The position numbers and the translations under genes are program-made. A DNA stretch of 64,000 bases from Parachlamydiales bacterium (lineage in GTDB: Bacteria > Chlamydiota > Chlamydiia > Chlamydiales > JAJFMK01). The notes under the pieces were generated by a model. It searched no databases and was not told the origin of the DNA. It saw only the letters and a program-made list of their open reading frames with translations. The stretch is from assembly GCA_963765145.1 (NCBI GenBank), contig CAVXVG010000036.1, positions 1 through 64,000 of the forward strand. Direction: 5' to 3'. Shown here in pieces: positions 43,333 to 45,064 of the stretch. The first letter of the stretch is position 1, and every line of letters begins with the position of its first letter.

Positions 43333-44465
43333 CCCCTAATTACATCTTCGCTGAAATCAAAATCAGGGTGGATGCCTATTTGAAAAAGCATCCGGATGGC
43401 CGAAAATTGATTTCGCTTGCTTTGGGCGACACGACGCATCCTCTTCCTGAGGTTATTTCGAATGGATTGTCAGATGCGGCATTGAAATTGGCCACCGATG
43501 CGGGATACAAAGGGTATAATCCCCTCCTTGGCCTAGATGCCTTTAGAGCTTCAATCAGTGAAAATATCTATCACAGCCACCTTTCTGCTGATGAAATCAC
43601 CATCTCAGACGGAATCAAACCAGATTTAGCCCGTTTTGCCCTTCTATCGGGTGGCAAGCAAAAGGTGGCGATCCAAGACCCGTCTTATCCTGTTTATTTA
43701 GAGACGTCTTATTTGGTGGGCGACGAAGTTATTTTGCTTCCTGCTACAAAAGAGAATGGCTTTTTCCCCGATTGGTGCTCTTTGAAAGGGCCTCATCTGC
43801 TTTTTCTTTGCTCTCCTAATAATCCAACAGGTGTTGCAGCCACAAAACAGCAGCTCCAAAAAATTGTGGACCACGCCCGAAAAGAGGAGATGTTGATTTT
43901 ATTCGATGCTGCTTATCAAGCGTATGTAACCGATCCTTCTATTCCACGATCCATTTTTGAAATCGAAGGGGCTAAAAGTTGTGCCATTGAATGGGGTTCT
44001 TTCTCTAAAAGCGCCGGTTTTAGCGGACTTCGTTTGGGTTGGTGTGCCATGTCAAAAGAGCTACGCTATTCTTCCGGAGAATCTATTTTAGATGATTGGA
44101 AAAGGATATTGCATTCGTCTTTAAATGGAGTGTCTTACCTTTCACAGGTTGGAGGGATCAAGGCTTTATCGATAGAGGGGCAAAAAGATTTACAACAGAT
44201 TGTGAAAGGGTATTTAGAAAATGCACGCTTGTTAAAAGAGGCGTTAATCAAAAAAGGGATCCAAAGTTATGGGGGCATTCACACCCCTTTCATTTGGGCC
44301 GATTTCGGGCCTAAAACATCGTGGGAAGCCTTTGATGAGCTGCTAACAAAATACCAGATAGTGACGACTCCCGGCGTTGGATTTGGATCGGCCGGAGAGG
44401 GTTTTCTCCGTTTCAGCGCCCTCGGCAAGCCCCACGACCTCCTCGACGCCCTCCAGAGAATGTAG
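43302..44465 (+). CDS. dapL: LL-diaminopimelate aminotransferase
   Basis: GDTT.P, CSPNNPTG, SFSKSAGFSGLRLG, TPGVGFG..GEGF.RFS; clustered with dapA/dapB. Confidence 0.92.
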   Translation: MQRSPNIQRLTPNYIFAEIKIRVDAYLKKHPDGRKLISLALGDTTHPLPEVISNGLSDAALKLATDAGYKGYNPLLGLDAFRASISENIYHSHLSADEITISDGIKPDLARFALLSGGKQKVAIQDPSYPVYLETSYLVGDEVILLPATKENGFFPDWCSLKGPHLLFLCSPNNPTGVAATKQQLQKIVDHARKEEMLILFDAAYQAYVTDPSIPRSIFEIEGAKSCAIEWGSFSKSAGFSGLRLGWCAMSKELRYSSGESILDDWKRILHSSLNGVSYLSQVGGIKALSIEGQKDLQQIVKGYLENARLLKEALIKKGIQSYGGIHTPFIWADFGPKTSWEAFDELLTKYQIVTTPGVGFGSAGEGFLRFSALGKPHDLLDALQRM

Positions 44466-45064
44466 CTTAGGCTTTAGAAGTACTTGCAAAAATCGGATTG
44501 TTGGCTTTTTTTTAGAAACAGGTCCGAAGGACCGAAATATGAAAGCCCAGCGCCGAAGGCCTGGGTTACAAATGTGAAATAAAATTGGAGTCCTGAAAGG
44601 ACGGCATAAAATATCTCCTGTAGTGTTTGTGGAACAGGATATGTCGTCCCTTCAGGACTCCAATTTCTATTGGCATACTTACCCTGGCCTTCGACCAGGG
44701 CTTTCATATTTCGGCCCTTCGGGCCTGTTTCTGAGCTTAATCTGATTTTTGCAAGTGGCTCTTTAGAGCCACTTGCAAAATTCAGGCTCCAGATCACAAT
44801 AGACCCGTATGCATTGCATTAACATAAGGAAGAGCTTCCTATAAATTTAACAGGATGAACAGGATCGCCTACGGCGACAGGATAAGCTCCGCCTAGCTTT
44901 ATCGTTTTGTAAACAGAAAATTATTTTAGTTGGCGAAGCTTATCCTGTTCACCCTGTTCATCCTGTTATTTTTATCTTGTAACCAAGAGCTCTTAAGAGA
45001 TGTTAAGGGCTTTATCAGAGTTCATTCTGATTTTTGCAAGTGCCTCTAAAGTCTAAGCTACATT
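44459..45064. mobile_element. Nested composite of palindromic elements: H arms > two G MITE-like units > a three-hairpin element and an E element
   Basis: H arms at 44459-44477 and 45046-45064; G units at 44475-44762 and 44764-45048; inner elements at 44514-44732 and 44848-44968. Confidence 0.85.

Follow-up and report, generated by a model that had tools for sequence, protein, structure and literature searches.

The insertion sequence IS1397 inserts in the loop of a palindromic unit. Five IS families (IS3, IS110, IS4, IS256 and IS5) are named in PMC1525189 as having REPs for targets. Members of the IS1182 family are described as targeting hairpins or palindromes (PMC4923244; PMC5678879), and the model presented in PMC5678879 contains a route with loop duplication ('pathway c'), which is drawn there merely as a possibility. 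The GTAG REPs characterised in PMC3333891 and PMC3733652 carry their head on the 5' side of an imperfect palindrome, one stem position of which does not form a Watson-Crick pair, occur as singlets or inverted doublets, are accompanied by a repeat-flanked RAYT and can provide the TAG of the head as the stop codon of a neighbouring gene.

The locus described here belongs to a Parachlamydiales bacterium (GCA_963765145.1), whose assembly is a metagenome bin of 37 contigs with 84.8% completeness; the window, i.e., the whole stretch of DNA analysed, comprises positions 1-64,000 (64,000 nt) of contig CAVXVG010000036.1. Between two convergent genes, this locus presents non-autonomous mobile elements stacked on one another; most probably, two IS1182-family MITEs (G1 and G2) entered the TTTA loops of a REP doublet, which later lost its palindromic core. 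The features of the locus are as follows.

43302-44465, plus strand: dapL, an LL-diaminopimelate aminotransferase-like ORF of 387 aa (taken from the ORF list, coordinates checked)
44461-44472, plus strand: H arm, which forms the 5' side of a REP hairpin of the GTAG type (TGTAGCTTAGGC); an identical arm opens 75 intact hairpins in the genome
44473-44476: TTTA, the REP loop and left target duplication of G1
44477-44761, plus strand: G1, a 285-bp MITE of an IS1182-family element, with TIRs at 44477-44494 and 44744-44761; termini match those of an IS on another contig (C27)
44514-44732: three-hairpin palindrome, the core of G1, made up of end-modules from an IS200-type element (Y1 transposase) that have been fused
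44762-44765: TTTA separating G1 from G2; it duplicates the target on the right of G1 and is the midpoint of the junction palindrome
44766-45046, plus strand: G2, a 281-bp MITE of the same C27 IS, with TIRs at 44766-44783 and 45029-45046
44841-44975: E element, a repeat of palindromic form whose ends iterate AACAGGRTG; the core of G2
45047-45050: TAAA, the 4-nt loop of the REP on the right
45051-45062, minus strand: H' arm, an inverted REP arm (GTCTAAGCTACA)
45084-47891, minus strand: convergent ORF of 935 aa, with its stop codon 21 nt beyond the H' arm

Nested repeats downstream of dapL

A first-pass annotation had described four repeat families nested within the 600 bp after dapL, and every one of the features was found in its place. 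The order over 44461-45062 is H arm, TTTA, G1 (285 bp), TTTA, G2 (281 bp), TAAA and H' arm, and the dapL stop codon TAG (44463-44465) sits within the GTAG head of the REP arm. The outer inverted repeat (44459-44500 and 45023-45064) comprises 42 nt with 88% complementarity, and the junction palindrome (44742-44762 and 44765-44785) comprises 21 nt with 95% complementarity and 2 nt between its arms. Inside the units, the three-hairpin palindrome (44514-44732) has arms of 35 nt (94%) and 27 nt (93%), and the E palindrome (approximately 44841-44975) has arms of 23 nt (91%), 30 nt (77%) and 17 nt (94%). When folded as single-stranded DNA, the 606 nt reached -180.2 kcal/mol, compared with a mean of -63.8 +/- 4.1 for shuffled sequences (n=20; z = -28), and none of the 20 shuffles folded as stably. 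Further copies of all four families were found in the same genome (BLAST, 250 HSPs): unit 1 is present in its entirety at seven other places with 97.8-99.7% identity, and unit 2 has one copy at 99.3% and two at 92-93%.

H arms are present at both ends, as had been noted; however, they do not make up a single split hairpin but are the outer arms of a doublet of a GTAG-type REP/REPIN family that has a RAYT in the same genome. Each arm has retained a loop 4-mer of its own, TTTA on the left-hand side and TAAA on the right-hand side. Intact REP hairpins of the form GTAGCTTAGGC-TTTA-GCCTGAGC number 75 in the genome, with approximately 24 more interrupted by G elements. Their structure is GTAG-CTTAGGC-TTTA-GCCTGAG-CTAC, with the GTAG head located 5' of an imperfect palindrome that contains a wobble, and the T/G stem position recurs in the 75 intact copies. 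A RAYT gene flanked by inverted REP hairpins lies on contig C5 (119088-119696; ORF 119131-119676) and scored 103.4 bits against NF047646 (REP-associated tyrosine transposase; cut-off 80), and a second, shorter RAYT copy is located on contig C28 (46757-47143). Literature searches found no prior description of this REP family.

In a congener (G001), the gap downstream of dapL is short and contains neither H nor G, only a short hairpin, and the dapL ORF extends 8 codons further beyond the shared Arg (15 versus 8 residues beyond the shared HDLL/RDLL motif). The proposed comparison with a relative thus provided a genome without the element after dapL but no true empty site, the two dapL genes being only about 70% identical.

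Ends, target sites and cargo of the G elements

From 76 candidate G termini in the genome, 64 were kept, yielding 29 complete elements. One of these is the autonomous IS that the first-pass annotation had suggested looking for, an intact, single-copy element of 1,459 bp on contig C27 (207333-208791); the remaining 28 are MITEs of 163-358 bp (G1, G2 and Gs) that have the same 18-nt ends (GAGSCACTTGCAAAAWTC). The IS encodes a 381-aa DDE transposase in a single ORF, with matches to Pfam DDE_Tnp_1 (PF01609; 55.8 bits, cut-off 23; 6.7e-15) and, in the N-terminal domain, DUF772 (PF05598; 47.2 bits, cut-off 23.1; 2.3e-12). The best of eight NCBIfam models for this protein was IS1182 (NF033551), at 119.8 bits and thus under the cut-off of 270, followed by IS5_4 at 69.4 bits. 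A search of a contig collection with the transposase found no relative, whereas a search of whole genomes did. The nearest annotated relatives belong to the IS1182 family (41-45% identity over 92-98% of the protein), and the top plasmid matches are annotated as IS1182 or ISUnCu17. ISUnCu17, from an Aeromonas plasmid, has ends of the same sequence type (GAGCCTCTTGCAAAA), a 15-nt TIR with 93% complementarity and a 4-bp duplication, ATGA. In published full texts, the TIR sequence matched unrelated primers only. As G1, G2 and Gs are small, non-coding and multicopy and share the ends and the target duplication of the IS, sequence comparison identifies the G units as MITEs of this IS1182-family element.

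A direct 4-bp target duplication was observed at 21 of the 29 complete elements (20 of the 28 MITEs). The identical direct 4-mers include AAAA, TCCT and AGGA, and this variation indicates that the 4-mer is target DNA rather than element sequence. A TA duplication of the Tc1/IS630-like kind was rejected: 4 bp are needed to read the ends symmetrically and to accommodate the AAAA, TCCT and TAGA cases. Inverted 4-mers (TTTA...TAAA or TCCT...AGGA) flank six of the 29 elements, including the G2 described here; such flanks are not produced by simple insertion.

The flank preference expected of the G termini was confirmed. Most elements (22/29) lie in the TTTA loop of a GTAG-REP hairpin, 21 of these sites being assigned by the automatic rule and one (C19 41548) having arms with an indel; four occupy the TCCT loop of an unrelated hairpin family with 210 intact copies, and three are found elsewhere. 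The background of available sites in the genome consists of the 75 intact REP hairpins, 40,208 TTTA/TAAA sites and 2,574 CTTTAG/CTAAAG sites. The REP loops are occupied by five subfamilies in both orientations, including the C27 IS itself, which is inserted with a TAAA duplication, and each of the 13 elements flanked by an H arm on one side and a K arm on the other restores an uninterrupted REP hairpin together with a single extra loop copy. The earlier proposal that G units target CTTTAG loops is therefore upheld with respect to the loop, but the target is the duplicated 4-nt site, mostly TTTA between C and G, and not the hexamer itself. 'Any TTTA in a loop' was rejected as too simple a target, because the inner REPIN hairpin GCAGGAC-TTTA-GTCCTGC, also a C-TTTA-G loop, has no G insertion in any of its 23 copies.

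Similar flanks were found in other genomes. Among six G-type pairs in G001, three have direct 4-mers (TAGA, TAAA and TTTA) and two have inverted ones, so that the mirror-image class is present there too, and GTAG arms adjoin 8 of 24 termini. In other phyla, direct TTTA/TAAA flank 25 of 30 small elements with these ends; 161-bp relatives in Zetaproteobacteria occupy TTTA sites without hairpin arms, where 0-3 of 8 flanking positions are complementary in most cases. The target may be determined mainly by sequence and not by structure. In another genome (G289), all four copies of a 44%-identical relative are located in a TGAAA loop that belongs to a different hairpin, and these 5 nt are duplicated.

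The three-hairpin core is present in 14 of the 28 MITEs and the E element in nine, the other five having neither. The earlier suggestion that G units carry or attract palindromes thus holds for carriage, but the cargo is fixed in each MITE subfamily and gives no evidence of attraction. The G1-type MITEs have 14 copies, those of G1a being nearly identical, and the G2-type MITEs have nine, the nearest at C5 76013-76293; the BLAST match that spans this copy and adjacent sequence (C5 76012-76312) shares 99.3% identity with the G2 of the window. The three-hairpin arms also flank an IS200/IS605 TnpA gene (C24 56584-57231; NF033573, 71.2 bits, cut-off 55), and the G1 core derives from the ends of such an IS200-type element (Y1 transposase), fused to each other. 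The Rfam family Acido-Lenti-1 matches this core at 44682-44726 (37.6 bits, gathering score 37) and 44520-44565 (33.5 bits). An independent mobile unit consisting of the short three-hairpin element was rejected, as the few copies outside G are all degraded G1 elements (C5 100655-100918 and C2 43769-43990), halves or the IS200-type element. The G2 core, in turn, is recognisable as a copy of the abundant palindromic family E, which has 77 loci in the genome, 56 of them with both arms. No autonomous E element was found as a pair of E ends 400-4,000 bp apart in the genome, and none of the three other Y1 genes checked had E ends nearby. With flanks, cargo and an autonomous IS all as expected, the tests set out with the earlier reading favour it.

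Proposed order of events and competing readings

In the stack of MITEs that we prefer as an explanation, the C27 transposase would move the MITEs in trans, making a 4-bp staggered cut at C-TTTA-G-like sites and favouring those presented in hairpin loops. The starting point would have been a REP doublet, of which G1 entered the left loop and G2 the right; the doublet core of approximately 85 bp would then have been lost together with one TAAA. Candidate precursor states, i.e., REP doublets with G in both terminal loops and the core retained, are found in this genome at C5 75750-76312 and C29 131667-132352. The pile-up would have no function for the cell, the REP loops serving as harmless landing sites. 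At the core-loss step, no flanking direct repeat of more than 2 nt was seen in support.

The rare H-arm variant GTAGCTCCAGGC is common to the G1 copies at C5 33131 and C19 41548 and is found in no other REP copy. Gene conversion or joint movement of arm and MITE would explain this sharing, and the G copies may not all be independent insertion events. A more far-reaching reading, to which we give about one chance in four, is that a DNA-shape-reading branch of IS1182 integrates into loops of 4-5 nt in extruded hairpins unrelated in sequence (TTTA, TCCT and TGAAA), with duplication of the loop, and that its MITEs are then copied by RAYT as the spacer of a REP doublet. Such copying of arm-flanked MITEs would explain both the mirror-image flanks and the shared rare arm variant; if true, a DDE-type element would hitch-hike on a single-strand Y1 transposition system.

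We regard it as improbable that H and G form one element with a terminal inverted repeat of 36-42 nt, moved as a block by a DDE transposase or by RAYT acting on the GTAG arms, with no insertion into hairpins. The 88% complementarity of the 42-nt outer inverted repeat and the recurrence of entire H-G1-H' blocks at several places (98-99.7%) would suit such a block, but 7 of the 29 elements have no REP arm (four in the other hairpin family, three elsewhere), 75 intact REP hairpins have no G, and same-ended elements in other phyla and on a plasmid are without these arms. Mirror-image flanks that include the 4-mer (6/29), the same association and mirror-image class in G001, with GTAG arms at 8/24 termini, and the rare arm variant common to two copies also point towards joint movement; against this, the 13 H/K cases each restore exactly one REP hairpin with a duplicated loop, and a duplication outside the H arms was not seen.

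An assembly artefact, with near-identical repeats collapsed or mis-joined in the metagenome bin, is very improbable. Copies of both units with 99% identity exist elsewhere, the genome is a bin of 37 contigs with 84.8% completeness, the contigs from independent reads break at the repeats, and among those listed none spans 44762-44766; however, the junction sequence is unique in the assembly and was thus not copied from another repeat copy there. The call for a check by independent reads was answered in part, in runs whose best share of sampled words was 0.32, none reaching half: a 308-nt contig from run X18 (44205-44512, 4 differences) runs from dapL across the H arm into the end of G1, whereas the G1-G2 junction is unbridged among the pieces listed. 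A 126-nt contig from run X3 contains another pair of abutted G ends, 4 nt apart, indicating that such junctions occur elsewhere. Just as slight is the chance that the locus is a host feature, i.e., a bidirectional terminator or small RNA locus, rather than mobile DNA. Its position between convergent genes, its very stable fold (z = -28) and two arms at or near the Acido-Lenti-1 gathering score would be compatible with such a role, but every one of the modules is repeated in numerous unrelated contexts, a transposase-bearing relative exists in the genome for three of the four, and G001 has merely a short hairpin at the same position.

Taken as a stack of MITEs in REP loops, the locus belongs to a single genome that contains the intact IS, three MITE subfamilies, approximately 75 empty and 26 filled target hairpins, and intermediates with one or two insertions, and that can inform target choice in IS1182-type elements. 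Loop-duplicating insertion, previously just a drawn possibility for the family, is testable with these sequences. In this chlamydia-like bacterium from the environment, derivatives of three transposase classes (RAYT, IS200-type TnpA and DDE) form stacks of up to five layers, with parasites using other parasites as safe sites. The locus also calls for caution in annotation, as the match to an Rfam 'small RNA' motif falls on the hairpin of a transposon end and the dapL stop codon comes from a REP.

Relation to described elements

The H family resembles the GTAG-type REP/REPIN systems with RAYT (REPtron) in its GTAG head, imperfect stem, doublets, flanked RAYT and use of TAG as a stop codon, and differs from known REPINs in that its doublet has two extra inner hairpins. 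The IS is most like the ISUnCu17-like IS1182 group on Aeromonas, Comamonas and Acinetobacter plasmids, with which it shares a single DDE_Tnp_1 + DUF772 transposase, GAGCCWCTTGCAAAA-type ends and a 4-bp duplication; in contrast to that group, at least three MITE subfamilies arose here, mostly in REP loops. Compared with the IS1182 model, the C27 protein is shorter (381 aa versus 488 positions) and scores below the cut-off.

Among the systems described as targeting hairpins, IS1272/TnSha1 of staphylococci, also of the IS1182 family, uses, like the G elements, inverted repeats or hairpins without a common primary sequence, often just 3' of genes (PMC4923244, PMC5678879). As described there, IS1272 generates no duplication and leaves the stem-loop replaced or partly deleted, whereas the G elements keep the stem arms and duplicate the 4-nt loop, as in 'pathway c' of PMC5678879; stem-loop replacement of this type was ruled out by the retained arms and duplicated loop at 13/13 H/K sites. 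IS1397/ISKpn1, IS621, ISPpu9/10, ISRm22 and ISNm1106 are similar in that their copies are reported mostly or only within REPs (PMC1525189). IS1182 is absent from the five families named in that source, and most copies here are MITEs rather than full ISs. An IS1397/ISKpn1-type element (IS3 family, two frames, rve) was ruled out, the C27 IS having a single ORF with only DDE_Tnp_1-type domains. The targeting of REPs and palindromes by ISs is thus already known, and the dapL locus is a very clear example of it.

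Nested repeats downstream of dapL

The window covers bases 1-64000 of contig C36 in a 2.68-Mb genome of 37 contigs. The stretch 44459-45064 is flanked by two convergent ORFs, and all of the repeat families that the first-pass annotation had placed in it were recovered at their positions. H and H' are two copies, in inverted orientation, of the 5' arm of a repeated hairpin, and G1 and G2 are two copies of a family of small elements (G) with 18-nt insertion sequence (IS) ends.

Features of the locus 3' of dapL (window positions; ORFs from the ORF list)
43302-44465, + strand: dapL
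44461-44472: H arm, TGTAGCTTAGGC
44473-44476: 4-mer TTTA, between H arm and G1
44477-44761: G1, 285 bp
44762-44765: 4-mer TTTA, between G1 and G2
44766-45046: G2, 281 bp
45047-45050: 4-mer TAAA, between G2 and H' arm
45051-45062: H' arm, GTCTAAGCTACA
45084-47891, - strand: 935-aa ORF, convergent with dapL

As single-stranded DNA, 44459-45064 folds at -180 kcal/mol, compared with -64 +/- 4 for 20 shuffles. The G1-G2 junction sequence occurs once in the assembly. One contig from another run covers 44205-44512 and so connects dapL with the H arm and the end of G1, and no piece spanning the junction (44762-44766) was present among the independent-run contig pieces listed. A 126-nt contig of metagenome run X3, matching window 44759-44785 and 44945-45043, joins a G2-type right end to a G2-type left end with 4 nt between; it represents either a head-to-tail G2-type pair or a circle junction.

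The G family and its cargo

A genome scan for G ends returned 76 rows, of which 12 were chance-like and removed; the 64 termini kept form 29 complete elements and 6 single ends. One complete element is the autonomous IS that the annotation had proposed to look for, a single-copy, 1,459-bp element on contig C27 (207333-208791) with an intact 381-aa ORF containing DDE_Tnp_1 and DUF772 domains. IS1182 is the top NCBIfam model for this transposase, with a score under that model's cut-off, and its nearest annotated relatives, which are plasmid-borne, are IS1182 family or ISUnCu17 (41-45% identity). ISUnCu17 has the same type of ends, together with a 4-bp duplication; in an Aeromonas caviae plasmid (L134, 348-1830) it is 1,483 bp long, is flanked by ATGA and lies between the annotated resistance genes qacEdelta1 and aac(6')-Ib. 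Thus, the G units are a family of miniature non-autonomous elements (MITEs) of an IS1182-type insertion sequence.

The remaining 28 elements fall into three groups: 14 are G1-type, with a three-hairpin palindrome (44514-44732 in the window) as core; nine are G2-type, with a core of the palindromic family E; and five are short (163 bp), with an interior that has few genomic matches, one of them at 82% (C5 103009-103119). The near-identity of the copies in one G1 subgroup (G1a), together with the intact C27 ORF, suggests that the family was recently active.

Because three-hairpin arms flank an ORF on contig C24 (56584-57231) whose IS200/IS605 transposase score exceeds the cut-off, the G1 core consists of the two end-modules of this IS200-type element in fused form. 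The Rfam candidate small RNA Acido-Lenti-1 matches the outer hairpins of this core at 44520-44565 (-), with 33.5 bits, and at 44682-44726 (+), with 37.6 bits, just over the gathering score of 37; because IS200-type ends form these hairpins here, Acido-Lenti-1 may represent transposon DNA and not a gene for an RNA. Family E occupies 77 genomic loci, and no autonomous copy was found in the genome. Since the three-hairpin core is present in all G1 copies and E in all G2 copies, cargo capture preceded the amplification of each subfamily. The earlier suggestion that G units either carry or attract palindromes therefore holds for carriage; no sign of attraction was seen. Nesting reaches five levels at C5 33060-33470, where an A-family hairpin (GCGTTTGGAGTGCTAAAC...) encloses a further MITE with GGCCTTGTTGCATAAT ends and, each nested within the one before, a REP, a G1 and a three-hairpin core. 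The GGCCTTGTTGCATAAT MITE has 143 genomic termini; GTGCTAAAC precedes 47 of them, and its reverse complement precedes 25.

REP hairpins as probable targets of G insertion

The H-arm hairpin, GTAG-CTTAGGC-TTTA-GCCTGAG-CTAC, has 75 intact genomic copies (TTTA loop in 73), occurring singly (28 bp) or as both terminal hairpins of a ~118-bp palindrome with two inner hairpins. Such hairpins flank an ORF (C5 119131-119676) whose score for REP-associated tyrosine transposase (RAYT) exceeds the cut-off, as well as a second, shorter RAYT gene copy within C28 46447-47351, where a G1 MITE is inserted in the loop of the left flanking REP. Hairpin and ORF have the characters by which GTAG-type REPs and REPtrons are defined in available passages of PMC3333891 and PMC3733652, which identifies H as a REP of a RAYT system. 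According to the available text of PMC3733652, the TAG of the REP head serves as the stop codon of the adjacent gene in other genomes. The dapL stop codon (44463-44465) is likewise the TAG within the GTAG head, and the dapL ORF of congener G001 extends 8 codons further after a shared Arg, terminating within unrelated sequence; the repeat has thus replaced the 3' end of the gene.

The target duplication of the G family is 4 bp. Direct identical 4-mers, mostly TTTA/TAAA and also AAAA, TCCT and AGGA, flank 21 of the 29 complete elements, while two show one mismatch and six have inverted 4-mers. Six G pairs in G001 comprise three direct (TAGA, TAAA, TTTA), two inverted and one other, and a 57%-identical relative in genome G116 has direct 4-mers in 3/4 copies (GAAA, TAGT, CATT). 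When TTTA plus the G end was used as a query against one genome per species, 64 loci were found across many phyla, including Acidobacteriota, Zetaproteobacteria, Verrucomicrobiota and Chlamydiota (the 18-nt end after TTTA recurs in MAGs at L070-L133), and the far-end 4-mer matched the near-end one in 25 of 30 complete small elements; the TTTA preference, like the ends themselves, is thus old and widespread. Seven 119-bp copies in an Acidobacteriota MAG all lie within one repeated hairpin (..CAAGC-TTTA-GCTTG..), which suggests that the repeat-loop habit extends far beyond Chlamydiota.

Genome-wide tabulation of the flanks bore out a preference for REP arms. The proposal that G units target CTTTAG hairpin loops fits the 22/29 in the REP TTTA loop (21 assigned automatically from their arms, and C19 41548, where an indel affects the arms), but not four in the TCCT loop of a separate, commoner hairpin (GTGCTAAAC-TCCT-GTTTAGC, 210 intact copies) or three outside both hairpin families, at C-NNNN-G-like sites. 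In 13 elements with one H and one 3' (K) arm, the full-length C27 IS included, the flanks restore exactly one intact REP hairpin with its loop duplicated. As the genome has 40,208 TTTA/TAAA and 2,574 CTTTAG/CTAAAG sites, clustering in ~100 REP loops is far above chance, even with five subfamilies and two orientations taken as the independent events. A 44%-identical IS has four copies in genome G289 (L060, L067-L069), and all of them occupy the TGAAA loop of a further hairpin and have duplicated its 5 nt; this hairpin, GTCC-TGAAA-GGAC, is part of a palindromic repeat similar to the window's three-hairpin element.

A purely structural target rule is opposed by the inner hairpin of the REP doublet (REPIN), none of whose 23 copies holds a G insertion in its C-TTTA-G loop, by zetaproteobacterial G-end elements at TTTA sites without hairpin arms, and by the G116 relative, where arms are absent by eye at 3/4 sites. 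Our reading is that the target is a TTTA-biased 4-bp site used best as a hairpin loop, by a mechanism that we infer. A REP-arm variant that contains an additional base (GTAGCTCCAGGC) is common to two G1 copies at unrelated sites (C5 33115 and C19 41532) and absent from all other REPs of the genome; it reflects either joint movement of arm and MITE or gene conversion that extended into the arm.

Origin of the arrangement and known systems

Two REP doublets (C5 75750-76312 and C29 131667-132352) retain their core and hold a G in each terminal loop, in the order H-TTTA-G-TTTA-core-TAAA-G2-TAAA-H'; C5 76012-76312 is 99.3% identical to window unit 2 (BLAST). Because the window locus has the same outer halves without "core + TAAA", its most likely origin is two G hits on one REP doublet, after which the perfectly palindromic core would have been lost. 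Alternatively, insertion of G1 into the TTTA beside a resident G2 would yield the same sequence. Core loss from a doublet, as in the favored two-hit origin, would also account for the inverted 4-mers of six elements, each of which lies between the two outer arms of a doublet; the deletion step is presumed.

A literature search, with subscription journals and ISfinder outside its coverage, found neither an account of these repeats in Chlamydiota nor one of the G terminal sequence. In the available portions of the sources, REPs are targets of IS elements from five families (PMC1525189) and palindromes are targets of IS1182-family members, with IS1272 replacing the stem-loop without duplication (PMC4923244, PMC5678879). 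Loop duplication is drawn only as a possible path in the available text of PMC5678879; the G family behaves as this path predicts and has also given rise to MITEs. Its main interest is as a ready-made data set on target choice.
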